A stretch of DNA of 64,000 nucleotides from assembly GCA_963715865.1 (NCBI GenBank), contig OY970280.1:896001-960000 (forward strand), read 5' to 3'. Each line of letters opens with the position of its first letter. The stretch's first letter is position 1. Source of the DNA: Candidatus Bathyarchaeota archaeon (GTDB lineage Archaea; Thermoproteota; Bathyarchaeia; Bathyarchaeales; Bathycorpusculaceae). Below are positions 37,161-51,631 of this stretch, piece by piece. Both the position numbers and the translations under genes were made by a program. A model generated the notes under the pieces. It searched no databases and was not told the DNA's origin. It saw only the letters and a list, made by a program, of their open reading frames with translations.

Positions 37161-38348
37161 ATGGAAGCCCAAGCCGTTATTAAGTGTCCTGAATGCGGCA
37201 GCGAGAAATTCTTTAAAGACGGGGTAAGGAAACTTTCAAACAAGCAAGAAAAACAGCGTTATGTTTGCCGTGTATGTGGCTACAGATATACATACCCTAC
37301 TAGCTTAAATTCTGTCTCGGACAATTCAGTGAGCAGCCAAATATGCGTCGCGGAGACGAAAAATTTGGAACCAGTGCAGAAAACAAAAGGAAAACTATTC
37401 TGTGCTGGAGATGCAAAACTAAGTGCTGACACCAAAGGATTACTAACACAGTTCTACGCCTACCTAGAAAAAGAAGCCTATTCTGTTGAAAGCGATTACG
37501 TTGATAAAGTTAAGCACCTTGCCGTTCTTGGAGCTAACATTCGCGATCCAGAACACGTTAAAACCGTAATCGGACACATGCAACGGAAAGACGGCCAAAA
37601 AACTAAAAACGGCACTAAAATGCTGTACTGTTATTCCTATGATGCTTTTGTTAAAATGCTTAAAATTCAGTGGGATATGCCTACCTACGTTCAAGAGGAC
37701 CATGATCCTTTTGTTCCTGACGAAACCGAATTAGACGCATTAATCAGCTCTGCTAAATCTAAACTGTTAGCCGCTTACCTACAATGCCTAAAAGAAACGT
37801 TTGGCGACCCCGGCGAAGTGTTAAGAATCAAATATTTAGACGTTGACACCAACAACAAGGCAATAAGCATACGTTACCCCGTAAAAAATCACCTACCACG
37901 AACCCTTCAAGTATCAAACCGACTGTTAGCCATGATTGAAGCACTACCAAAAAAAGACGATAGAGTTTTCCCGACATCTTACGCAAACATGCTTAGACGT
38001 TTCGTGACTATGCGCAAAAGAACGGCTGATATCCACCAAAACCCCAGGCTATTAGCGGTTGACTTCACAGCCTTTAGAACTTGGGCTGGAACCATGATCG
38101 CCTACCACACAAACGGAAACGTGCTAATAGTTAAGAAACTGCTAGGCCACAAACAAATCAAAAACACAATGAAGTACATAGGCAAAATACAGTTCCAAAG
38201 CCAAGACTTTGAAACAACAAGCGCGTCAACCGTTGAGGACATCTTAAAATTGGGTTCTCAAGGCTGGATAGAATACTCAGTTGATAAAATCAACAATGTT
38301 GAATATCACTGTTTCAAGAAGCCTAAGAGGTTTAGCACTTATGTCTAA
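37161..38348 (+). CDS. Zn-ribbon-fused tyrosine recombinase with a degenerate active site
   Basis: CPECG...QRYVCRVCG N-terminus; KETFGDPGE, FTAFRTW, LGHKQIKNTMKY. Confidence 0.8.
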   Translation: MEAQAVIKCPECGSEKFFKDGVRKLSNKQEKQRYVCRVCGYRYTYPTSLNSVSDNSVSSQICVAETKNLEPVQKTKGKLFCAGDAKLSADTKGLLTQFYAYLEKEAYSVESDYVDKVKHLAVLGANIRDPEHVKTVIGHMQRKDGQKTKNGTKMLYCYSYDAFVKMLKIQWDMPTYVQEDHDPFVPDETELDALISSAKSKLLAAYLQCLKETFGDPGEVLRIKYLDVDTNNKAISIRYPVKNHLPRTLQVSNRLLAMIEALPKKDDRVFPTSYANMLRRFVTMRKRTADIHQNPRLLAVDFTAFRTWAGTMIAYHTNGNVLIVKKLLGHKQIKNTMKYIGKIQFQSQDFETTSASTVEDILKLGSQGWIEYSVDKINNVEYHCFKKPKRFSTYV

Positions 38349-39551: not shown

Positions 39552-39617
39552 GAATAGTACTGATGAGTTGGGAAATTCTTATTGCTTCCGATAGCGCATA
39601 TAGGTGTGGGCTGGCGA

Positions 39618-39914
39618 GTTGGTGTGTGGCTTTCGGACCCAAAAAATGCTGGGTCTGAGGAAACTCCGCCCACGTGTAGAATTGCAGTGCCCCAAGGGTA
39701 CAGGGCGAGAGCCTTGGCTACGGAGCAGAAACGAAACGTCCAATTGGACTTGGCGATGAGACATTTGTGATGTCGAGTGTGCCAGTTTGGAAGCGGTGAA
39801 ACGGCCGTCCTGCAAGTGGAAAGGGCAAACAGTCGCTGATGAGGAATCTACCTGAAGGCGCGGGTAGCCCGATTAGCCGAATGCCACAATAACAGAAGGC
39901 GGGTTACAACCAAC
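39618..39914 (+). ncRNA. rnpB: RNase P RNA (archaeal)
   Basis: GAGGAAACTCC, CAGAAACG, GGTGAAACGGCC and AACAGAAGGCGGGTTA conserved regions; P1 GTTGGTG/C(A)ACCAAC; P2 TGTGGC/GCCACA; ends may extend a few nt. Confidence 0.92.
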
Positions 39915-39920
39915 ACACCA
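39896..39920 (+). repeat. att copy 1, AAGGCGGGTTACAACCAACACACCA (3' end of rnpB)
   Basis: Identical 25-mer at 44436 and 50952. Confidence 0.95.
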
Positions 39921-39931
39921 CCCCAAATCAC

Positions 39932-40852
39932 TTGTACACCGCCTTAGAAACACCCAACGACACATCAATACTAAACGTATTAATCAACATGAAAAACAAC
40001 AACAAAAGCGACAGCACAATCAAATTTACAAGAAAAGCATTAAACAGATTAAGCAGTAAAGCAAAACTGAATGAACCCAAAGAAATAAAATCATTCATAG
40101 CCAACCTTAAAACAACAAACGCCTACAAAAGAAACCTCTGCATCGCATACAACAAATACGCAAAATACTATAAAATTCAATGGGAAATGCCACTATACCA
40201 ACAGGAAGAACAAAACATAGCACTCCCAACAAAAGAACGAATAGACGCACTCATAGCAAACGCAAGTACAGTAATGTCAACCAAACTAACATTAAGCAAA
40301 GAAACAGGACTACGACCCGTAGAACTATGCAGACTAAAAGTCAAAGACATAGACACCGACACAAACAAAGTTTATCCAATAACCGCTAAACATGGACAAG
40401 CCAGAACACTAAACATAAGCACAAACCTAAGCCAAAGACTTAAAGAATACATAACCAAAAACAAACTACAAAAAGAAGACAAACTTTGGCAAGAAGACGC
40501 AGACCACTACGGAGCAAACTTTCGCGAAATGCGAAACAAATTAGCCATAAAACTTAATGACCCAAAAATAGCTGAAATCAGACTATACGACCTAAGACAT
40601 TACTTCTGCACAATAACACTGCACAACACAAACGACACATACTACACAATGGTACAAATGGGTCACAAACACCTAACAACAACACAAAAATACTTACACC
40701 TAATCGCAAACTCAGGAAACGAAGAATACACAAGCAAAGCAGTACAAACAGGAACACCAACAACACTAAAAGAAATCATGCAACTAATAGATGAAGGATA
40801 CACCAAAGCAGACGAAATCGAAGGAATCCACATCTACAAGAAGAGGAAATAA
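39932..40852 (+). CDS. Tyrosine integrase, int(C) portion (frame open from 39893)
   Basis: KETGLRPVE (R), AKHG (K), YDLRHYF (R), MGH and terminal KY; frame runs through att copy 1. Confidence 0.92.
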   Translation: MYTALETPNDTSILNVLINMKNNNKSDSTIKFTRKALNRLSSKAKLNEPKEIKSFIANLKTTNAYKRNLCIAYNKYAKYYKIQWEMPLYQQEEQNIALPTKERIDALIANASTVMSTKLTLSKETGLRPVELCRLKVKDIDTDTNKVYPITAKHGQARTLNISTNLSQRLKEYITKNKLQKEDKLWQEDADHYGANFREMRNKLAIKLNDPKIAEIRLYDLRHYFCTITLHNTNDTYYTMVQMGHKHLTTTQKYLHLIANSGNEEYTSKAVQTGTPTTLKEIMQLIDEGYTKADEIEGIHIYKKRK

Positions 40853-40890
40853 ACAACCCTCTCTTTTCTTCAGACACAAGTCAAACACAT

Positions 40891-40920
40891 GCTACGCTCC
40901 GCTACGCTCCGCTACGCCCC
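40891..40920 (+). repeat. Tandem 10-mers GCTACGCTCC-GCTACGCTCC-GCTACGCCCC followed by a T7 run
   Basis: Read directly, between convergent gene ends. Confidence 0.85.
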
Positions 40921-40952
40921 TTTTTTTAACAAAAAACATAAAAACAAAAACA

Positions 40953-41147
40953 TTATGAAAACAAAACCTTCTCAAAAGCCCCACAATCAGGATTAACACA
41001 TACAAACAAATCATTATGAATAACACGAATATCAAATTCAACATAATATTCTAAAATAAAACCACAAGAAGGACACAATTTCACATGTAATTGAGAACCA
41101 AGTTTAGATAAATAAGAACGCTTAGAAACAGGAATATGCCAACTCAT
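40953..41147 (-). CDS. Small Zn-finger protein
   Basis: CPSC and CVNPDC; ATGA overlap with the upstream gene. Confidence 0.7.
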   Translation of the reverse strand: MSWHIPVSKRSYLSKLGSQLHVKLCPSCGFILEYYVEFDIRVIHNDLFVCVNPDCGAFEKVLFS

Positions 41148-41368
41148 AAATTAGCTATCACCGCCAAACCAGAAACATCATTATCCAAACCATAACGAAA
41201 CTCCATTTCAACAGAAGACAAATCTTGAAGAACCAACAAAAGAGGAAAAATACCAAAATTACCAAACCGCAAATAAAAACGGTACTGAAACTTACCAATC
41301 CCTTCACAAGCAAAAAAAACAACATCATCCGTCAAATAAAAACCATAAAAAACAGCCTTATCAACCAC
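41144..41368 (-). CDS. Hypothetical protein
   Basis: Frame is open up to about 41425 (CTG after GAGGTG), next to the Rep stop codon. Confidence 0.55.
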   Translation of the reverse strand: MVDKAVFYGFYLTDDVVFFACEGIGKFQYRFYLRFGNFGIFPLLLVLQDLSSVEMEFRYGLDNDVSGLAVIANL

Positions 41369-41417
41369 TTTTTTACCCTTAACAAACTTAACCTCAGAAA
41401 CAGGAACCTCAAAAGAT

Positions 41418-42560
41418 TTATTCAGAGTTACACCTCAAATTACCATCCGAATCCTTAACAAACAAATTACCGCCAAAAGCATCATACATATCCAAAATCA
41501 AATGCCTATGAAAATCAGGCGAACTCTCAACAGTACAAATCTTAACCCCACCGCAACCGCATTGACTAATTCTAACAAGTTCCAAACCGCAAAGAGGACA
41601 AACACGCTTATCCTTCTCAGGCTTATAATGCAACTTATGATAACCAGCCACACCAAACCAAGTCAACGGATAAAACCGTTTACCACCCTTAAGAGAACTA
41701 ATCTTAATCGACGAATGCCCTAACTGATACCAAATCGTACCAACAACAGTTTTACGTTCACCCTCAACCTTACAAATATAACCATCAGTCTTATTCTGCT
41801 CACGGGTCAACTGCTCAAAACCATCACAATGACAAGCCCGATTACAACCCGAAGAAGTACCCCCATGAGAAATCCATTGAGCAAAATCAGGACAATTTCG
41901 ACACCGAGCATAGCTCTCTTTCAGAAAACCAACAATATGCCAATGAGGAGCAAAAAACCACCCTAAACTTGCATCAGAAGTATTCAACTGTTGCCACTCA
42001 CGAAAACCATGATACCGAAAAGCATGAAAGATGACCAAACCGCCAATAATACCCCGCTTAAACGCAATCTTCAACGCCTTAGCATGTAACTTCTCATAAC
42101 TTAAACCATAATCAGACACAGGAACACTCAAAATAATATGCTCTATCTTTCCAAATTGCTTAGAAGCAAACTGTAAACGTTTCTCAGCCTTCCGAGCCTC
42201 ACGAGAAGCCCAACCAAACTTATAACAGACTCTACAAGACGGCTTATTACAATGAATCGAAGCAACATAAACATAAGCCTTATTCGCAAAATTACCAACT
42301 AAACTGTTCACATGACCCTTAACGTTAAGGCATCCTTCTAAATGAGAATGAGAACCACACGAACGATTAGTTTGCTCTTCAAGCCCGACTAACTCAAAAT
42401 CACCATGACGACCCCAAGTCGCATTAACCGCCTTAAAATCAGTCTCAGCAGAAACCTCATCATTCTTCATATCTTTCTGATAAACACGATAAATCTGTTC
42501 AAACTCACTGTCACAATATAAACGCAAAGGAAAAACGCAAAGCGAAACCTTCTTAGTCAA
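41418..42560 (-). CDS. Putative HUH rolling-circle replication initiator
   Basis: HIILSVP (motif I-like), PHWHIVG (HUH), WYQLGH (Tyr motif), several Cys clusters including a C-terminal CPLCG. Confidence 0.68.
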   Translation of the reverse strand: MTKKVSLCVFPLRLYCDSEFEQIYRVYQKDMKNDEVSAETDFKAVNATWGRHGDFELVGLEEQTNRSCGSHSHLEGCLNVKGHVNSLVGNFANKAYVYVASIHCNKPSCRVCYKFGWASREARKAEKRLQFASKQFGKIEHIILSVPVSDYGLSYEKLHAKALKIAFKRGIIGGLVIFHAFRYHGFREWQQLNTSDASLGWFFAPHWHIVGFLKESYARCRNCPDFAQWISHGGTSSGCNRACHCDGFEQLTREQNKTDGYICKVEGERKTVVGTIWYQLGHSSIKISSLKGGKRFYPLTWFGVAGYHKLHYKPEKDKRVCPLCGLELVRISQCGCGGVKICTVESSPDFHRHLILDMYDAFGGNLFVKDSDGNLRCNSE

Positions 42561-42745
42561 ACACCAAGCCCCCCAAGTTTTTCAAAATGAAAATGGCAAC
42601 AATCCTTATTCCGAGCAGGAACCAACAAACCATCTTTCCAATCACACTGAAAGCCAGCTTTAGGATTCAAACGACAAATACAACCATTAGCGTAACAATC
42701 CACATAATCGCAGTCACAAACACCAAAAACAGGAACAGGCATCAT
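42557..42745 (-). CDS. Small Cys-rich protein
   Basis: Eight Cys; overlapping start/stop with both neighbours. Confidence 0.55.
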   Translation of the reverse strand: MMPVPVFGVCDCDYVDCYANGCICRLNPKAGFQCDWKDGLLVPARNKDCCHFHFEKLGGLGV

Positions 42746-42882
42746 TCAGAACCCCCATTATGCACCTTACGAATAAGCTTAATCAACAAATCAGCCAGCT
42801 CCTTACTAAAAACACCTAAAAACGGAGAAGTAAACACAATAATAGCAATCAAGCCATAGCCAACAGAAGCCAAAACAATCAA
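42742..42882 (-). CDS. 46-aa single-TM protein (not in ORF track)
   Basis: TTG start in a TTGA overlap; MIVLASVGYGLIAIIVFTSPFLGVFSKELADLLIKLIRKVHNGGSE; stop overlaps the next ATG. Confidence 0.6.
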   Translation of the reverse strand: MIVLASVGYGLIAIIVFTSPFLGVFSKELADLLIKLIRKVHNGGSE

Positions 42883-43151
42883 CGCTCCAAATCTGGAAAA
42901 CCATCCAGCTTATCACAAATCCACGTTAAATGAAACCCATCAAAATGAAAAGAAAACCTATAACGTTTACCGCCAGACCGACAAGCCCCAGAACCCAAAA
43001 CACAGAGGCAAAAAGGCTTACCAAAACGAGTTAAACCAATGAAATTAGCAGAAGGACAAACACTCAAACGGTCTTTTTCAGCCTTACCAACGATAACAGA
43101 ACCAACAACGACTTCTATATTCTTACTCAATCTTAACAAGCTCCAGACCAT
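42879..43151 (-). CDS. Hypothetical protein
   Basis: Part of the overlapping leftward gene chain. Confidence 0.5.
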   Translation of the reverse strand: MVWSLLRLSKNIEVVVGSVIVGKAEKDRLSVCPSANFIGLTRFGKPFCLCVLGSGACRSGGKRYRFSFHFDGFHLTWICDKLDGFPDLER

Positions 43152-43329
43152 CGAATATTAGAAGGGATTTACCCTTATCCAAACATTCAACAGCCCAAAG
43201 CTGATTCTCCATCATCATAAAATACAAATCATCGACACAAAGGTCGAAAACAATACTAAATTCTTTAGAGGCACGTTTATGATAAACATAAACAGACGAA
43301 CCGTTATCACGAAACGCCTTAAGTGCCAT
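43123..43329 (-). CDS. Hypothetical protein
   Basis: First ATG ORF of the leftward operon. Confidence 0.5.
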   Translation of the reverse strand: MALKAFRDNGSSVYVYHKRASKEFSIVFDLCVDDLYFMMMENQLWAVECLDKGKSLLIFDGLELVKIE

Positions 43330-43393
43330 AACCCCTAATGCAATCTACTAATATAAAAAACTTTTCATGTCTATAGCATATACCGTAGCATGA

Positions 43394-43615
43394 TATAGTC
43401 AACGACTATAAAACATTACACACAACAAAAACGAAAAAGGGCTTGCGTACCTAACAGATGTTTAAGCCATCTGGCAAGCCCCACACAAAAGGACAAAACA
43501 AAGACAAAGTAACTCTTTTTAGGAAAAGAGATTACAGAAAAACCTTGAAACTAAACTGGAAGCGCAACACTCACAAAGAGTGTGCGAATTAACGAGCCAT
43601 CTACTCTTTCCAGAA
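43394..43615. other. Hairpin-rich non-coding region, candidate replication origin
   Basis: TATAGTC-AAC-GACTATA (43394-43410); GGGCTTGC...CAGATG-TTTAAGC-CATCTG-GCAAGCCC (43439-43481); further inverted repeats to about 43615. Confidence 0.5.
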
Positions 43616-44235
43616 AGAGATAGCAGAAAGCAACGCAACACGGCGAAAAAAGCTAAAAGTGGCGAGCCAGAGGTAAAAATGAGCCAATTTTTTTCCCTAA
43701 GTGCAAGTTCTCCAATTTCACGGAAAAAAAATGCTTGATAGCCCGTATTCCCCTTTTCACATATAATAGAAAAGGGAACCCCGAGCGGTGCCTCATTTTT
43801 ATCCACTTTTCCGAGCTTTTTTCGCCAAGCCAAAAACGAGAAAGAGTGTTAATAATGAAAATATATAGAAAAAGGCTAAAGACCAAACTTTCTTAAAAAA
43901 AGTTACAAAGAACTTATGGAAAAGAAAACATGAACGCATACGCTAACATATTTACGATATACCTGTAAAGCATCATAAACCGTTAAAAAACAGTTAATCT
44001 AAAAACTACAAATTAAAACGCTAAAACAAAAGTGATAAACAGCTAAAAAAAATGTAGAGATTAACCTACACTCAAACAAGCAAATGATAACAAAGTAACC
44101 ATTAAACCACAGGTTAAAAAAAGGTACAAAATCACCACCCCAACAATATCGTAACAAATTGTACCAAATAGAACATTAATGTATCAATAATATATAAAAA
44201 CATATATACAAATATCAATATATCCTAACATACCT

Positions 44236-44382
44236 ATGGTGAAAATTAAAATGGGAAAAACAACAATAATCTTAACCCAAGAAAACGAGAACCAAATCAG
44301 AATACGAAACCGTAAAAAAGGAGATATATCAAACACAATCAACCAAGCATTAGAACAATACTTCAAGAAGGTAGAACAATGA
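44236..44382 (+). CDS. RHH/CopG-like regulator (48 aa, not in ORF track)
   Basis: MVKIKMGKTTIILTQENENQIRIRNRKKGDISNTINQALEQYFKKVEQ. Confidence 0.65.
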   Translation: MVKIKMGKTTIILTQENENQIRIRNRKKGDISNTINQALEQYFKKVEQ

Positions 44383-44460
44383 CAGAAACAACAATAGAAA
44401 TAATAACAACAGAACCCACAAAAGAACGTACGATTAAGGCGGGTTACAACCAACACACCA
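44379..44460 (+). other. int(N) fragment of element A integrase
   Basis: ATG coupled to the RHH stop; MTETTIEIITTEPTKERTI-KAGYNQHT enters att copy 2 in the same frame in which att copy 1 leads into int(C). Confidence 0.8.
44436..44460 (+). repeat. att copy 2
   Basis: Exact 25-mer (26 bp shared with copy 1). Confidence 0.95.
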
Positions 44461-44540
44461 CGCCCAATTTCTGCTTACAATTGCTAAACTTACTTCTTTT
44501 TGTAAACTGCTTTGTCAACAAAGAACAGCATGATCTGGCA

Positions 44541-45494
44541 TTAATGCAAAACTTGCAAAAGAATAGCAATAATTGCTAAAGAAGCTGCAAAATATGGTGA
44601 TCGTGCTACAGCCTTTAAGGTATCAATGGGCGTGACAACTGTTATCATTGACGATAACTCTGATATTGGGTATTCCTTGTCATCTCTTCCAGTTTTGATA
44701 TTTTTTAAGGCTGTTAAAGCATCTCTAAGATCCTCCTTGCGTTGGGCCACACGCAAAGACTTGAGGAAGAGTTCAATTTGATTCCTGACTACAATCAGTT
44801 CATCATCTTTTCCCGCCAGAAATTCGCAGCAAGCTATCTTGCTGTATTCTTTTAAACCCTCAATACTGACATGGACGACCATAACTTGATTGAGATAGTC
44901 ATTATAAGCGTCTAACCCGGTATCAAAAAGATTTGAAAAGCTCTTTATTATTTTCTTTCTTTCAAGCTCATCTTGTACTTGTCTTACATTTATTGCTTTA
45001 ATTAAGGCTAGTTTAATGTAAATACGAGCCTTCCTATATTTTGATAAAGAGCCGATTAGCAAAAAAACCGATATTAGCAATAATGGTAGCGTAAGATTGA
45101 GAGAATAATCAATTAAAGAGTAAAGTCCTCCATTATTTTTAATCCATTGTGGATAATAAGCAAGCAATAAAATGGAAGTAGCAAACAATAATGTGAAAAT
45201 AAACATAAGGAAGGCAACAAAATATGTTCGGTATTTGTCTATAAAAATGAGGTTGCCTGGGTACAGTTCTTTCTTGCTTAATGAAATATAAATTCGACTA
45301 TGTATTAAAACTGCAGTTGCAAGAATAATTGTCCAAATATAGATAGTTAAAGACGATGGAGCTAAATAATATATAATCTCAAAAATGGTTAAGATGATTA
45401 TGATTAAGCTTAGCTCAATGAGCCTAATGTGTTGCCCATACGAATGATAAAACCTTTCGCTCAGTTTTATTCTCTTAAACGCTTTTGAAAACAT
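44541..45494 (-). CDS. Hypothetical multi-TM protein
   Basis: About four N-terminal hydrophobic segments, helical soluble region, C-terminal hydrophobic end. Confidence 0.75.
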   Translation of the reverse strand: MFSKAFKRIKLSERFYHSYGQHIRLIELSLIIIILTIFEIIYYLAPSSLTIYIWTIILATAVLIHSRIYISLSKKELYPGNLIFIDKYRTYFVAFLMFIFTLLFATSILLLAYYPQWIKNNGGLYSLIDYSLNLTLPLLLISVFLLIGSLSKYRKARIYIKLALIKAINVRQVQDELERKKIIKSFSNLFDTGLDAYNDYLNQVMVVHVSIEGLKEYSKIACCEFLAGKDDELIVVRNQIELFLKSLRVAQRKEDLRDALTALKNIKTGRDDKEYPISELSSMITVVTPIDTLKAVARSPYFAASLAIIAILLQVLH

Positions 45495-45629
45495 GTGTGA
45501 TTAAATGACCTTTGTGGTTAAATATTTTGGCGTTAGATCAAGGTAGAGTCTTGTTGATTTGTTTTAACTTAAATAAAACGCCTATTCATAGACTGAAACT
45601 CTTCAATTTTTAATTTAACTATTCCCAAT

Positions 45630-46457
45630 ATGCTTAAATTTAGTTCCTCACCAAAGAATTGCAAAGGTCTCTCCATAATGGCAAGTACATTCAGTTTGAA
45701 AAGATCCTATTTGGTGTTAATTCTATTAGCTATTTTTTTTAGCGCCTTATCTTCTTACTTATTTTTTGCTTACAAAGAACAGTGGTTCTCAGCTTATTCT
45801 ACCAGCATTGCTTCAGGGATTGTAGGTTCATTAATAGTGATTTTTCTTATTGACCGAATAATTGAGAGAAACCGAGAAAGGGAACAAATGCAAATGAGAA
45901 AAATTGCTCTGGAAAAGCTGCGCATACCAATTGTATGGCAAATGATGTTGTTATGTAATGTGTATAAAGCTGCTTCAAAAGACAAACCACAGAAGCTACC
46001 ATCCAACTTTCAAGAGATATTTACGGACAATTTTTACACTGAAGTATCATTCCTTGATTTTGCCAAGGATGCTGGCGTTACGCCGAAGACGGATTGGTTC
46101 AACCGCTTGGATTCAGAGCTCCGATTCTTTAAGAAAAAAATTGAGCAAACCATTGATACTTACGCTATTTTTTGTGATAGCTCATTCATTAGTCTGCTTG
46201 AGAAGCTCATCAACTCACACTTTACCTTTTTTATTATTCAGGCAAAAGCTATTCCGATTGTAGACATGCAAATGGGATTCAAACGTCGCTATACTATGTT
46301 CTCAGGAACTGAAGAATTTTTGAAAGAACATGCTCTTCTTATGCTTCAGCTAATTGATTACTTCAATTCGGAAGCTGAAAAACCAATTGAATTTGATACA
46401 AGTATTTGGAGAGATGATGTTTCTCCACTATGGGGTAGCGGGCGAGTTCAAGGTTAG
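45630..46457 (+). CDS. Hypothetical protein, two N-terminal TMs plus soluble domain
   Basis: 275-aa ORF; ATG near 45678 is the likely start. Confidence 0.75.
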   Translation: MLKFSSSPKNCKGLSIMASTFSLKRSYLVLILLAIFFSALSSYLFFAYKEQWFSAYSTSIASGIVGSLIVIFLIDRIIERNREREQMQMRKIALEKLRIPIVWQMMLLCNVYKAASKDKPQKLPSNFQEIFTDNFYTEVSFLDFAKDAGVTPKTDWFNRLDSELRFFKKKIEQTIDTYAIFCDSSFISLLEKLINSHFTFFIIQAKAIPIVDMQMGFKRRYTMFSGTEEFLKEHALLMLQLIDYFNSEAEKPIEFDTSIWRDDVSPLWGSGRVQG

Positions 46458-46506
46458 CCAATATATAGCAAAAGGAAAAAGCCTAGCTTTATTGATAACC
46501 CACCAT

Positions 46507-46829
46507 CTATTTGGGTTTTCTAAAAGCATGATGCCTTCGGTAGTAATGCAAACAAAGCTGAAGCCATCTTCAGTTAGTCTCTGAGCCTCTTCTGTCGTTT
46601 TAGCAATTGCTGAATAGTATTTGTCTCCCTCAGTTTTGATTAGATGCGTATATACCATTGTCGAGTTTATATTTTTATGACCTAATCTTTCTTGGACATG
46701 CAGAAGGACGTTTGTTTTAGCGTATTCTGTTGAACCAAACCAATGTCTGAGGCTATGAAACTTTATTTGATTAAGCCTTGGATTTTGTAATTTTATCGCA
46801 AGTCTTTTTCTCTGCTTTTCATAACTCCA
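46507..46829 (-). pseudogene. C-terminal remnant of a tyrosine integrase
   Basis: YEKQRKRLAIKLQNPRLNQIKFHSLRHWFG...LGHKNINSTMVYTHLI; stop immediately upstream (46830-46832); adding one T at 46522-46525 restores an MLFRKPK-stop ending. Confidence 0.85.
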
Positions 46830-46840
46830 TCAGTGACGCT

Positions 46841-47167
46841 TCAATTTTGCTTGGATTCTTTGTAGAGAAGGATTAGCCCCGCCAAGATAAGTAATGCTGG
46901 AACTACTCTAAAGATGACATTGAAAAAATAAATCCAACCCCAAGGAATGATGTAGGTTAATACAACTTCCATCCTAAGATAAATGTAGCTAATTACAATG
47001 GGTAAAGCTATCCATCCAACCGCTAGCAAAGCAGAGCCGACACCCATAATTAGGTATCCTTTCTTCTTCATCTTGAGAAAAAAGAAAGTTGAAACTGCTC
47101 CGACCATACCAAATATTATTGCTGGCAAGTAACTATTCAAAAGATCATACAGCAATGTTTCCCACAT
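46841..47167 (-). CDS. Small three-TM membrane protein
   Basis: Hydrophobic ATG ORF. Confidence 0.65.
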   Translation of the reverse strand: MWETLLYDLLNSYLPAIIFGMVGAVSTFFFLKMKKKGYLIMGVGSALLAVGWIALPIVISYIYLRMEVVLTYIIPWGWIYFFNVIFRVVPALLILAGLILLYKESKQN

Positions 47168-47604
47168 TTTTACGCCCTCAATTGGTTAGGTATTAAGTCT
47201 TACCGCTTATAATTTTTTCAATAACTTAACCTGTAACCCGCTAAACAACACGAAATTCTATTAGTGATTGCCAATTAAAGATTAGATTATGCCTTAGATT
47301 TTCTCAAGATATGACAGTATATCTCAAGTTAAGTCTCGGCGTCGCTCCGCTCCACCTCGACGTTTACAAAATCAACCAACCGCGTTTTCGATGGCAAAAC
47401 TAAAGTCAATTCCAATACCTAAACCACTTCTAAGAAACAGAACTCGGCAATCAACCTTTGAGACTGACTTTATAATGGTTCAATTTGATATTCCTTAAAT
47501 ATAGTGTTACAACAATTAGCCTAGAATTGTCGATCCGATGTTTTAGTATTGCATGAAAATGCCAAAAGTTTTATCTTGTCTCTTAAACAATACTTAAACT
47601 TTAA

Positions 47605-48156
47605 TTGAAGGTAAGACAAATGGGAAGACTTAGCCTTGCATTCAAAACAAAGTATGGCGATATCAGAATTGAAGGCGATTCACTCGCAGATTTCAAGAAT
47701 ATTTTGCTAGAAATTGGAGTTTCAGAGATAGACATAGAGAGTATTAGAAACACAATCACATCCCAAATCGAGCATCAAGACATTATTGTTAGTATTCCTT
47801 CAATTCCAATTAGTTCATCAAAACCCGAGCTTACGGGAGTAATTGAGTATGGAAATGATGGGACTCCTCATATCACAATATCTTCTGACAAATTAACTGC
47901 AAGAGAAGTTATAGGTCTTCTTCTGTATACAAAAAGTCCAAATTCAATTTCCATGGGCGAACTTACTAACTTAGTAAAAAACAACTGGAAAAATGTTGAT
48001 ATGACGCAGATTTCGGCTAATCTAAGTTTTATGCGAGCTTATGTAATTAAAGAAGGGACAAGAGGCTCTTATTCATACAGACTCTCTGGGTCGGGCAAAG
48101 AATGGATTGAAAATGAACTGCTTCCAAAACTAAGGATGAAGTCAGTAAAGGCTTAG
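47605..48156 (+). CDS. Protein with a C-terminal winged-helix domain
   Basis: LTAREVIGLLL...ISANLSFMRAYVIKEGTRGSYSYRLSGSGKEWI. Confidence 0.7.
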   Translation: MKVRQMGRLSLAFKTKYGDIRIEGDSLADFKNILLEIGVSEIDIESIRNTITSQIEHQDIIVSIPSIPISSSKPELTGVIEYGNDGTPHITISSDKLTAREVIGLLLYTKSPNSISMGELTNLVKNNWKNVDMTQISANLSFMRAYVIKEGTRGSYSYRLSGSGKEWIENELLPKLRMKSVKA

Positions 48157-48996
48157 GTGTGCCTTATGGGTGATGCTGAGAGAGATGGGGTCTGGTTGGG
48201 AATAGCATTGCAGAGTCTCATAACACTAGGGACAACTAAAAACGTGGTTAAGGAACAGGGTGGGATTTCAGATATTTTAGGCGAACTTATCGCGACCTAT
48301 AACAGAAGTGGAATTTCTGGAAATTTGCTAGCCGAAGCTCAGAGATGGGCGAATTATTTTAGAGACAATTATGCAGGAAATGAAAGTTTAAGACAAGCTG
48401 ACTCGGATAGGTTTGTTGCAGACTGCAGTAATTGGACTAAGTCTTTGATGGATATAATGAAGGAAAGGTTTGCTCACCCGAAGGAACTTTATGATAGACT
48501 GCCCAAAATTGATTTCATTCTTGATTCAATCAAGCAAATACAAACAGTAGAGCATCAATTTGTTTGTACAACACCCAATTCTCGCATTATTAAAGAAAAA
48601 GCCTCCGCAGCAATTGACGCAACTAATCAAGGGGATGTAATCCTTTTAACTGGTTATTTTGATAATGCTTTAGTTGACAAATTGAGTAGAGCATTGAGAC
48701 GAGGGGTTCAGGTTCGGTTAATCGTTCCAACCTACCATGCGAATGAGCATGATAATATTAATGCAACTAGAAGAGTTAGAACTGCAAATGGTCAGGTAAA
48801 ACAGCACGATTCAAATCACGCCAGACTAATGGTTTTCGGTGTAAGAGAAGCTATGGTTTCCTCTGCAGACCCAAAGACGGATGGTTTAGACCAAAATTAC
48901 GAAGCTGGAATTTGGACCACCAACAGAACCATAATCCAAAACTGCAAGGATTTTTTTGAAGAGATTTGGAATGAAGCATTAGATTGGAATATGTAG
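48157..48996 (+). CDS. Unknown helical domain fused to a PLD-like domain
   Basis: ALRRGVQVRLI, HARLMVFG (HxK position is HxR), SSAD, NYEAGI, FFEEIW. Confidence 0.78.
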   Translation: MCLMGDAERDGVWLGIALQSLITLGTTKNVVKEQGGISDILGELIATYNRSGISGNLLAEAQRWANYFRDNYAGNESLRQADSDRFVADCSNWTKSLMDIMKERFAHPKELYDRLPKIDFILDSIKQIQTVEHQFVCTTPNSRIIKEKASAAIDATNQGDVILLTGYFDNALVDKLSRALRRGVQVRLIVPTYHANEHDNINATRRVRTANGQVKQHDSNHARLMVFGVREAMVSSADPKTDGLDQNYEAGIWTTNRTIIQNCKDFFEEIWNEALDWNM

Positions 48997-49409
48997 ACAT
49001 TGCCCAAGTTGGCAACTATATGCAAGAACCTGTCTAAATGACGCGAATAGAATCCTGTCATAGTCAGGCAGACTTGTGAACTATCGCAAACATCAAGACC
49101 GAGTCAAAAGGGGAACCCCACGATAAACTCGGTTTCCGAGCTTGGAACTGCACGAAACTCAGGCTAAAACCAAGCTATCACTTGCCTTTCCTATGCTCGA
49201 AGGAAAGAAAAAAGGGTTATGAGCTTAAACTACTTTAAAGGATGCGTTCCCTGAATGCATCAACAAATGGAGTAGCTTAACCCCAAACTCCAGAACCCCA
49301 GACTCCTTAGGGGTTCTTACAAGCAACTGACACCTCGCTTAGCGAGTACACCTCTCCTAAAGGGCACCCCCTCGCAAGCGAGGACTCTGTCTTACAAAAA
49401 AGTAAGTAC

Positions 49410-49703
49410 TTAATGCAAATTATTCTTGGGTTTATAGATTATGAATGTGTCTGGGTCTGTTTTGTTTATAGACCGCTTTGTTTTCCACATACTGCCAGCT
49501 TGGTAGGTAAGTTGATGTTTCATTAATATTTCTTGTATGCGTTTTTTTGTTTCTTCATCAAGGGCTGTTTTTATAGTAATTTGGTACCCTCCCATCATTG
49601 ACAAAGAGGCGTTAGAAGATGATAATTCCAAATAATGACCATCAAGACCACTACAATTGTCAAGGAGTTCCTTCAGAACCGATATGGCTTCTTCACGTTT
49701 CAA
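49410..49703 (-). CDS. Hypothetical protein
   Basis: 97-aa ATG ORF with ordinary composition. Confidence 0.6.
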   Translation of the reverse strand: MKREEAISVLKELLDNCSGLDGHYLELSSSNASLSMMGGYQITIKTALDEETKKRIQEILMKHQLTYQAGSMWKTKRSINKTDPDTFIIYKPKNNLH

Positions 49704-50179
49704 AACAATCCCCTATAATTCTCTTAAGAACTTCTCCTAAAAAAGATTCGGTAATACTCTCTTCAAAGGGAGTAGCATCGCTCCCGACTCCCCCCTTTAG
49801 TTTAAGCCTAAAGGAAACCCCCTGCCTCTAAGGAATAAAATGAGAATTAGATAAGTAACTTTCTTAGAAAGAAAGGTTACAAAGAACAATTACTCTATGT
49901 CTGCACAAGAGTAATCAGAAAGCCGTTTTTTTGGCACCCCAAGACCCAAAAAAACCAACAACACCCACCAAGCCATCAAACCACAGTTAAGTAAAAACAC
50001 CTCAGGTAGCGAACAACTTTGGTGCAGAGCACCACCTTTCGCACCTAAGGACTCTGTTTTTTGCTCAGACAAGAAACAACAAAAGAGGAAAGTGAAAGAT
50101 TATTTTATTGTGTTTAGCGCGCGCGGATGTCTGCATCCCTTCATTTGACTCTCCATTTTTTAAATTCATCCAAGTTTTC

Positions 50180-50650
50180 TTAGGATTGCTTAGGTTTTTT
50201 AAGCATTGAACCAGCATACAGCCCGATGAAATATACTACCACAGAAAGGACAACATCGATTAACACTGTCAGCGCGAAATAAGCGAACCAATCGTAATTT
50301 GTCCACGAGCCCGTAGAGAATGTACTCTGGATGGAGTCTTTGAAAGCAGGACTTGCCAGCGGAGTGCCAAAGAAAGCTACAAGGAATATCATCAGCCCAA
50401 CCGTACTCAACATAACTATGCTGCCTATCGCTTTCAGTCTTGATTCCTCCTTAATCTGAGCAGCAAAAACGTAGCCGACTATCAGCGAAGTTACAATATT
50501 CGAAATAATGCCAGCAACAATAGTCATGGAGTTGTTGTTCAGTGGAGCAAATAGTACGAACAAGACAGCATCAAACAGTAAACTACTCACGAATAATGAA
50601 GCTGCAGCTATAACCACGTCACTAAATTTCAACCAATCACCTCCTCCCAA
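50180..50650 (-). CDS. Four-TM membrane protein
   Basis: Four hydrophobic segments and a basic C-terminus. Confidence 0.7.
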   Translation of the reverse strand: MGGGDWLKFSDVVIAAASLFVSSLLFDAVLFVLFAPLNNNSMTIVAGIISNIVTSLIVGYVFAAQIKEESRLKAIGSIVMLSTVGLMIFLVAFFGTPLASPAFKDSIQSTFSTGSWTNYDWFAYFALTVLIDVVLSVVVYFIGLYAGSMLKKPKQS

Positions 50651-50870
50651 ACTGAGCGCAAAAATCTATTTCATTATTCTTGGCTTAAATAATTTGTGTT
50701 GTTGATTCATTTACGGTTGCATTTTTTTTGTTTTTTTAAGAATGTTTGATATTTCCGTTCTTATTAGGCTTGTTTTGTTCGACGCTCTCCATACTCTAAA
50801 TATCAAAACTAAAATTCGGTTTACTTAACAGTGTCTTCACAACCTGAGTTGCCACAAGAAGTAACCGTCT

Positions 50871-50882
50871 AAAAGCTTATAA
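50871..50882 (+). promoter_or_regulatory. Candidate BRE/TATA promoter (AAAAGCTTATAA) upstream of the second int(N)
   Basis: Lies about 35 bp before ATG 50916. Confidence 0.5.
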
Positions 50883-50915
50883 CTAGACATTAACAATAAG
50901 AACACAGGGATAAAA

Positions 50916-50976
50916 ATGAGTAAAGAAACAAGTAAAAAATTACTAAGGCTAAAGGCGGGTTACAACCAACACACCA
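50916..50976 (+). other. int(N)-like fragment of element B
   Basis: MSKETSKKLLRL-KAGYNQHT, in the same frame through att copy 3. Confidence 0.7.
50952..50976 (+). repeat. att copy 3
   Basis: Exact 25-mer. Confidence 0.95.
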
Positions 50977-51002
50977 GCTTCACAAATCTCACTACTTGGT
51001 AA

Positions 51003-51377
51003 CTAGACTATTCTTATATTTTCTTTGCCAACACTGGCGAGTTTCTGGTCTCTTGTTAGTAAAACCTCATTATTGGCAAGAGAAATGCCCGCAATAAGCA
51101 AATCGTTCTCGTTAATCATTCTTCCAGAATCCCGTAGCTCTTCAAAAAGCAGGGCGGCTCTTTGGGCGGCGGCTCTGTCGAAAGAGTAGACGGTCACGCC
51201 AGACAGGAACCTTTCAGCAGCTTGTTTTCTTATTTTAGTCTTGTGTCTAAGCAACTCGTATTCGGTTATGGTTGTGGTTTTCACGTCTTCTCTCCTTATG
51301 ATTTCTTGGATTAGAGCAACGATTTTTTGGTCGCCCGCCAAGAAATCTATTATGACACTTGTGTCTAGTAGTGTCAC
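51003..51377 (-). CDS. vapC: VapC-like PIN toxin
   Basis: LLDTSVIIDFL, TEYEL, ENDLLIAG, LLTRD. Confidence 0.9.
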   Translation of the reverse strand: MTLLDTSVIIDFLAGDQKIVALIQEIIRREDVKTTTITEYELLRHKTKIRKQAAERFLSGVTVYSFDRAAAQRAALLFEELRDSGRMINENDLLIAGISLANNEVLLTRDQKLASVGKENIRIV

Positions 51378-51631
51378 TCGAATGTCCTTCCGTAATTAGC
51401 CTCTCTTTCGGCGGCTATTTGCTGCTTTAATCGTTCAAGCGTCTCTTTATCATCCTTTAAAATGCCAGCTAAGCTCATGATGTCTACTTTTTCTTCCTTT
51501 GGGCAGAGGTTTTCTTTGATTACCTGTGAAAAACTCTTTTTGCCTTTTCTTTTTGATAGAAGTTCATAAACCTCATTTGAAACTGAAATCTGCCTTGCCA
51601 TAAACATTCCCCATATACATAATGTATACAC
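51374..51631 (-). CDS. vapB: VapB-like antitoxin
   Basis: MARQISVSNEVYELL...SFSQVI; overlaps the toxin start; ATG near 51601 likely. Confidence 0.85.
   Translation of the reverse strand: MYTLCIWGMFMARQISVSNEVYELLSKRKGKKSFSQVIKENLCPKEEKVDIMSLAGILKDDKETLERLKQQIAAEREANYGRTFE

Follow-up and report, generated by a model that had tools for sequence, protein, structure and literature searches.

Organization of the rnpB locus

A stretch of 64,000 nucleotides from a Candidatus Bathyarchaeota archaeon found in peat (contig OY970280.1, positions 896,001 to 960,000), which is referred to here as the window, contains the gene for archaeal RNase P RNA, rnpB, and directly behind it a 4,540-bp element (39921-44460), which is termed element 1 and carries the gene for an integrase, int. 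The Rfam model of archaeal RNase P RNA (RF00373) matches the region 39614-39918 over the full model length with 188.6 bits, as compared with a gathering score of 84. This match bears out an earlier, preliminary description of the window, in which a 25-bp repeated block was proposed to be the 3' end of rnpB. This block is present in three exact copies, at 39896-39920, 44436-44460 and 50952-50976, the last of which had been overlooked, and no copy arises in 100 dinucleotide shuffles. The identity between copies 1 and 2 is 26 bp. The three copies, termed att, delimit two elements in tandem, elements 1 and 2. Because the RNase P RNA is placed at 39614-39918, the 25-bp block takes in the universally conserved ACAGAAGG..GGUUAC stretch together with the P1 helix on its 3' strand. 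From the established architecture of RNase P, we take the ACAGAAGG..GGUUAC stretch to contribute the 3' side of P4. The features of rnpB and element 1 are as follows (ORF, open reading frame; aa, amino acids).

39614..39918, plus strand: rnpB, archaeal RNase P RNA gene and integration target (RF00373, model positions 1-288)
39896..39920, plus strand: att copy 1, which is the attL of element 1 and the rnpB 3' end (exact 25-mer)
39896..40852, plus strand: int(C), the integrase frame leaving attL (PF00589; stop codon at 40850-40852)
40921..40927, plus strand: possible terminator 69 nt beyond the int stop codon, formed by the first stretch of at least five T downstream of rnpB
40953..41368, minus strand: two small ORFs of 64 and 74 aa without family match
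41418..42560, minus strand: protein of 380 aa that contains Cys-rich zinc motifs, a putative HUH-type initiator of rolling-circle replication (conserved motifs, Atlas features and fold rows)
42557..43833, minus strand: four small ORFs of 62, 90, 68 and 104 aa without family match
44236..44382, plus strand: 48-aa RHH-like gene (Atlas feature match of 0.93 to RHH_1 clusters)
44379..44460, plus strand: int(N), which shares its frame with int(C) and consists of an ATG, a 19-codon leader and eight codons within att
44436..44460, plus strand: att copy 2, which is the attR of element 1 and the attL of element 2 (exact 25-mer)

Probable division of the integrase gene

The integrase gene is found in two parts at the two ends of element 1. 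At the left end, an in-frame TAA at 39890-39892 is followed by an open frame of 318 codons, which extends to the stop codon at 40850-40852. At the right end, the frame opened by ATG 44379 reads MTETTIEIITTEPTKERTI-KAGYNQHT through att copy 2. This frame is the sole ATG-led frame that enters attR, and it is identical to the frame of int(C) (frame 0). The positions of the first two 25-mer copies, of the TAA and of ATG 44379, and the frames at both ends, were checked base by base and agree with the preliminary description. The stop codon of the RHH-like gene overlaps the start codon of int(N) (ATGA), and an A/T-rich TATA-like stretch is located upstream. The RHH label comes only from the Atlas feature match, and the 48-aa protein gives no Pfam match.

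The integrase matches PF00589 with 62.4 bits (gathering cut-off 27.1, E 6e-17), indicating that it is a tyrosine recombinase. The residues R141, K166, R235, H236, H258 and Y267 are invariant across 34 integrase sequences. The catalytic Tyr is followed by about 50 further aa, which form a conserved C-terminal extension. int(C) contains every conserved residue, and none of the approximately 27 residues that are split off is conserved. In a Pfam search of the integrase up to an E value of 10, PF00589 is the only match and PF16795 is not found, whereas SSV1 Int scores 207 bits against PF16795. No significant collinear match is obtained between the integrase and SSV1 Int either by BLASTP or by hhalign. 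The closest solved structures are those of XerA and XerC-like recombinases (PDB 4a8e and 5hxy; E 1e-18 and 3e-16; profile positions 26-275). Judging from these matches, the integrase is a XerA-like member of PF00589 that lies outside the sequence family of the SSV1, pTN3 and pT26-2 integrases (PF16795), and therefore the split layout probably arose independently of the SSV1 and pTN3 integrases.

The 20 bases that follow att in the elements (39921-39945, 44461-44480 and 50977-51000) resemble the native chromosomal flank of rnpB, gcctattttactaatacacc, which occurs in many genomes (the loci compared are L009, L012, L021 and L043). A motif related to this flank, TTTACTAA, is also present before att in the leaders. 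Probably, the functional att extends beyond the 25 bp of identity and has imperfect arms.

Integrases behind rnpB in related genomes

A search for homologs of the integrase gives 629 protein matches, and loci with homologs were fetched from Bathyarchaeia genomes and metagenomes. Homologous integrases next to rnpB, for which a search of related genomes had been suggested, are present, such that a homolog is located directly behind rnpB at 86 loci, 76 of which are non-redundant. The exact 25-mer is present in 48 stretches of Bathyarchaeia assemblies, and no exact copy is found in IMG/VR. At 68 of the 76 non-redundant loci, the frame of the integrase can be read back through att without a stop codon, as compared with 92 of 152 for the two other frames. 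This enrichment is only modest, because T-poor DNA has few stop codons. In 57 of the 68 open-frame loci, no ATG, GTG or TTG is located between att and the conserved core. In addition, the seven residues that precede the internal Met, which corresponds to ATG 39989 of the window, are strongly conserved (I in 99, N in 108 and L in 115 of 135 sequences). Because of these conserved residues and the lack of a start codon behind att, translation must begin upstream of att, at a position that is occupied by rnpB once the element is integrated. These observations speak against routine starts at the positions of TTG 39932 or ATG 39989 without an N-terminus that spans att, which the preliminary description had named as a finding that would refute the split. 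TTG 39932 matches an ordinary Leu in the aligned relatives. Neither TTG 39932 nor ATG 39989 is supported as the ancestral start.

Of the 17 complete elements, 11 have the leader at attR and int(C) in one and the same frame, as compared with 6.0 expected (P ~0.01). Frame-concordant pairs are detected in all three frames, which read KAGYNQHT, RRVTTNTP and GGLQPT through att, and some of these cases were checked by hand. Conservation of the KAGYNQHT frame had been suggested as a test of the split, and this frame is not conserved: the three frames through att are used by 33, 22 and 21 loci. The leaders are unrelated in sequence except for a loose E..LL pattern. Because three frames are in use and the leaders are unrelated, the att-coded peptide is a linker without sequence constraint. 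The idea that one stretch of DNA serves both as a ribozyme helix and as an integrase peptide is thus literally true, but the peptide part of it is free to vary.

The rnpB-linked integrases dominate one clade of 108 sequences with a support of 0.90 in a midpoint-rooted tree, and the tRNA-linked integrases fall within the sister of this clade. The latter are distant relatives (30-40% identity) that are located 17-38 nt behind the genes for tRNA-Ala, tRNA-Gln and tRNA-Val, and their frames are open through the tRNA 3' end. Of 69 rnpB-linked integrases, 65 have the internal Met at 39989, and all eight tRNA-linked ones have Leu at this position. At ten loci, the upstream peptides (groups 'AGVDLW' and 'EAGALS') hinted at a different RNA as the target, but no RNA family is detected beside the integrase by cmscan. 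The ATG of the GAATGC motif within rnpB was considered as an alternative start of int(C) and rejected; it is in frame with int at 22 of 72 loci, which is the level expected by chance.

A circular relative with an undivided integrase gene

One Logan contig, L057, closes to a circle of 5,459 bp with an end overlap of 13 nt. It encodes a Rep ORF that is 42% identical to the 380-aa protein of the window and is unbroken across the circle junction. In this circle, a promoter, an ATG leader, an att-like block and the integrase form a single, unsplit gene for 318 aa, and upstream of the conserved residues translation could start solely at the ATG before att. The promoter and leader of L057 are homologous to a second stub of the window at 50870-50951, which is described below. 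The L057 contig does not contain rnpB. Further circular contigs were sought among about 160 loci, and only L057 closes. The reading put forward in the preliminary description, in which attP is located inside the int ORF and rnpB is restored upon integration, is therefore supported both by the relatives and by circular L057.

Searches for the excised element and the empty site

The six public runs that contain words of the window are peat metagenomes, with shares of 0.05-0.08. Read mining had been suggested as a way to find the circular junction and the empty site of element 1; neither of them is found for the exact element in the contigs from four of these six runs. These contigs come from related strains with other rnpB arrangements, in which the short sides of the joints are 25-34 letters long. 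By exact look-up, no other contig carries the RHH-like protein or the Rep protein of the window. In a genome of the same genus but of another species, rnpB is directly followed by the vapBC pair that forms the right flank in the window, and this arrangement represents a site without both elements. The exact copy in the window was presumably mobile or still is.

Proposed life cycle of element 1

Element 1 is likely to be an integrated small circular replicon, with an integrase that splits its own gene at the 3' end of rnpB. This explanation is supported by the anatomy that is observed, by its repeated occurrence in relatives, by the two ends agreeing in frame and by the unsplit circular relative. 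According to it, element 1 would be an integrated circular replicon of about 4.5 kb, of a type common in Bathyarchaeia, that replicates by an HUH-type Rep and integrates by a XerA-like tyrosine recombinase. In the circular form, att, which duplicates the final 25 bases of rnpB of the host, would represent codons 20-27 of the integrase gene, and the RHH-like gene and the integrase gene would form one unit with a promoter upstream of the RHH-like gene. The integrase would recombine its own 25-bp block with the identical 3' end of rnpB, and rnpB would be rebuilt exactly. After integration, int(C) with its 318 codons would be located directly behind rnpB without its own promoter or start codon, and the promoter, the RHH-like gene, the ATG and the 27-codon stub would be stranded at the far end (attR). 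Excision would rejoin the two parts, and the protein would then have 337 residues. Element 2, which is decayed and has a stub of its own, was stacked at the same rnpB site. The integrase required for excision may be supplied by a co-resident or incoming relative, as has been proposed for SSV2 and pTN3 (PMC8371274), or by low-level translation of int(C). The latter source is favoured, although not proven, by the completeness of the residues in int(C), the lack of a run of five T and the conserved internal Met.

Several findings do not fit this explanation easily. Off-frames are open through att by chance in 61% of the loci, due to the T-poor plus strand. The frames at the two ends are discordant in six of the 17 complete elements, which may be explained by decay or by tandem stacking and hybrid ends, both of which are frequent here. 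The leaders share little more than the E..LL pattern mentioned above. TTG 39932 could in principle open a 306-aa protein while the element is integrated, and no read or contig contains a circular junction or an empty site for the exact element. Moreover, some subclades behind rnpB have their own ATG downstream of att with stop codons before it (the MDFRYK.., MPYRN.. and MQ.RD.. forms at loci L034, L065, L066, L070, L101 and L117, of which L066 has two tandem in-frame stop codons). Therefore, the split is not universal, and unsplit derivatives exist among the relatives of the integrase; they look like reversions from the split to the self-contained layout. As an alternative, the integrase might be self-contained, like those of the classical lambda or pNOB8 type, with att in the 5' untranslated region and translation from TTG 39932 or ATG 39989 in both states, in which case the open frame through att and the ATG-led ORF at attR would be by-products of T-poor composition. 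The openness of off-frames, the use of three different frames with unrelated leaders, the subclades that start downstream of att and the conservation of Met 39989 in 65 of 69 rnpB-linked relatives are all consistent with such an integrase. It is nevertheless improbable, because seven conserved residues precede Met 39989, no start codon is present from att to the conserved core in 84% of the relatives, TTG 39932 corresponds to an ordinary Leu, the two ends agree in frame above chance and do so in three frames, and the circular L057 has only the ATG before att upstream of the conserved residues.

The division of the gene may also be real without being 'suicidal', such that the conserved internal Met (or TTG 39932) serves as a weak start for int(C), the product of which suffices for excision, and integration acts as a promoter switch rather than as gene destruction. 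int(C) retains all conserved and catalytic residues, and no run of five or more T is present between rnpB and 40921. Met 39989 is found in 94% of the rnpB-linked integrases and Leu in eight of eight tRNA-linked ones, but this difference may simply follow phylogeny. In addition, neither a Shine-Dalgarno-like motif nor a promoter motif is visible before 39989, and the ATG within rnpB is in frame with int only at the chance level (22 of 72). We consider this alternative rather unlikely. That the repeats result from an assembly artefact or from chance duplications without any mobile element is scarcely credible. The genome is a metagenome assembly, and independent reads of the strain were sought but none were found; yet three exact 25-mers are present where none is expected, the same arrangement is detected in dozens of independent assemblies from several studies, and element 1 is distinct in strand composition between 40000 and 44500.

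Replication protein and strand composition of element 1

The minus strand of element 1 holds seven small ORFs in addition to the 380-aa ORF. In the 380-aa protein, H206-x-H208 and Y278 are invariant in 15 homologs, and homologs of this protein are encoded by 30 or more related elements. In the Atlas feature comparison, the protein scores 0.95-0.96 against clusters in which Rep_1 is partly represented, and the top VIA-align rows of its model are HUH Rep nuclease domains, although with low Z scores of 4.2-5.2. It gives no Pfam match, Rep_1 (PF01446) included, and a Foldseek comparison of its model with the PDB yields nothing significant. The conserved motifs, feature scores and fold rows point with moderate confidence to a rolling-circle initiator of the HUH type, and element 1 would accordingly replicate by the rolling-circle mode.

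Between 40000 and 44500, the plus strand is rich in A and C, with an AT skew of 0.2-0.56 and a GC skew that falls to -0.47. The plus strand of int consists of 49% A, 24% C, 13% G and 15% T. This strand asymmetry continues across genes on either strand, as is expected for an asymmetrically copied (rolling-circle) replicon. A further consequence is that long ORFs are likely to occur spuriously on either strand.

Comparison with known systems

Type I integrases, namely those of the SSV type that are also called 'suicidal', were reportedly described by She et al. in 2001, and genomic islands that occupy tRNA or tmRNA genes at the 3' end reportedly by Williams in 2002. The preliminary description likened the partition of the integrase gene to that of the SSV1 and pTN3 integrases. 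The architecture is indeed alike, but the sequence family is different (PF00589 instead of PF16795). As in the type I integrases of SSV1, pTN3 and pT26-2, attP is located inside the int ORF, which is seen directly in L057 and, for element 1, is deduced by in-frame joining of attR and attL. Likewise, int(N) and int(C) are located at opposite ends in the same frame, the 3' end of a structured RNA gene is targeted and rebuilt, and tandem or hybrid stubs accumulate. The tRNA-linked relatives of the window integrase correspond to the textbook picture of type I. Unlike in type I, however, the target is rnpB instead of a tRNA gene, and tRNA targets are found only in the more distant sister clade. SSV1 Int carries PF16795 and PF07935, whereas the window enzyme is a XerA-like PF00589 protein without detectable similarity to it. 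In the window integrase, att is located at codons 20-27, as compared with codons ~64-78 in SSV1, so that the loss is limited to a leader without conservation. The two groups also differ in their hosts, which are Bathyarchaeia of peat and sediment for the elements described here and hyperthermophiles for type I integrases. Suicidal integrases are described as carrying PF16795, as having a single recent origin and as being a trait of hyperthermophiles (PMC8371274). Only tRNA 3' ends are found as targets in the whole data set of Badel et al. 2020 (PMC7253208), and the thaumarchaeal targets listed by Krupovic et al. 2019 are tRNA genes, intergenic regions and 3' ends of protein genes, without rnpB (PMC6563490).

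The window integrase has the same catalytic residues as archaeal XerA and XerC-like recombinases (4a8e and 5hxy), which are its best structural-sequence matches. XerA, however, resolves chromosomal dimers at dif, whereas the window enzyme is element-borne, would act at the 3' ends of rnpB or tRNA genes and has the conserved C-terminal extension that follows the catalytic Tyr. Element 1 shares with tRNA and tmRNA islands and proviruses the identity block at the 3' end of an RNA gene, the restoration of this gene and the tandem stacking, but the RNA gene is a different one (rnpB). It resembles rolling-circle plasmids of the Rep_1 type (pC194/pUB110) in size (4.5-5.5 kb), in the presence of HUH and Tyr in the largest ORF and in strand asymmetry. 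It differs from them by the lack of a Pfam Rep_1 match, by the Cys-rich zinc motifs and by the combination with a site-specific integrase.

In a search of the full-text literature, neither integration at rnpB nor a split integrase from Bathyarchaeia is found to be described, although large island databases may list such sites. These comparisons support the view that the rnpB target, the integrase lineage, the habitat and the minimal int(N) are new, and that the type I-like gene partition is known. The same logic of gene partition is thus seen in an unrelated-looking branch of the superfamily, in archaea of cold peat and sediment and at a different essential RNA gene. Split, unsplit, own-start and tRNA-targeting forms are found side by side, and provide a natural series for how att gets inside an integrase gene and for how target switching happens. 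rnpB also joins the docking sites that island-finding software should check. More speculatively, these integrases might represent a second, independent origin of self-partitioning integrases, XerA-like and in mesophilic Bathyarchaeia, with a switch of target from tRNA genes to rnpB and with integration acting as an expression switch via the internal Met, a combination that we regard as possible but doubtful. If this is the case, the split would cost the gene no more than its promoter, its start codon and a leader that is dispensable, the complete body of the enzyme would be parked behind a strongly transcribed ribozyme gene, and the conserved internal Met would allow the parked int(C) to be produced at a low level for excision.

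Element 2 and flanking regions

The features of element 2 and of the right flank are as follows.

44461..50951, no strand assigned: element 2, a decayed mosaic of 6.5 kb without intact integrase, encoding membrane proteins and a PLD-like protein
46560..46830, minus strand: pseudogene fragment of an integrase C-terminus within element 2, inverted and with an in-frame stop codon
50870..50976, plus strand: promoter-like box, att copy 3 and a second stub of int(N) that reads MSKETSKKLLRL-KAGYNQHT from ATG 50916
51003..51631, minus strand: vapBC pair of the right flank

The second stub, which starts at ATG 50916, enters att copy 3 in the frame that is used at copy 2. The region 47605-48996 of element 2 encodes a 183-aa protein without known family, followed by the PLD-like protein (48157-48996; PLDc_2, E 4e-15), and this pair is possibly a nuclease-type defence cargo. 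In four peat metagenomes (regions considered, 49100-50400 and 50790-51600), the contig depth of the right part of element 2 at ~49.1-50.4 kb is similar to that of the chromosomal flanks, and in the strains of these metagenomes this part is joined to att copies in a different order. Therefore, element 2 is a mosaic, the right 1.7 kb of which is older and widely shared.

At a locus of the same genus (L217; G002:C4:434200-435700, reverse strand), vapBC is located directly behind rnpB, and beyond it about 52 nt of the rnpB 3' end recur in degenerate form. Because of this copy, vapBC resembles an old cassette that lacks an integrase and occupies the docking site used by the elements. On the other side of rnpB, a second tyrosine recombinase of 395 aa is encoded at 37161-38348 (PF00589, E 7e-7). 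It is 30% identical to the integrase of element 1, and its gene ends about 1.2 kb upstream of rnpB.

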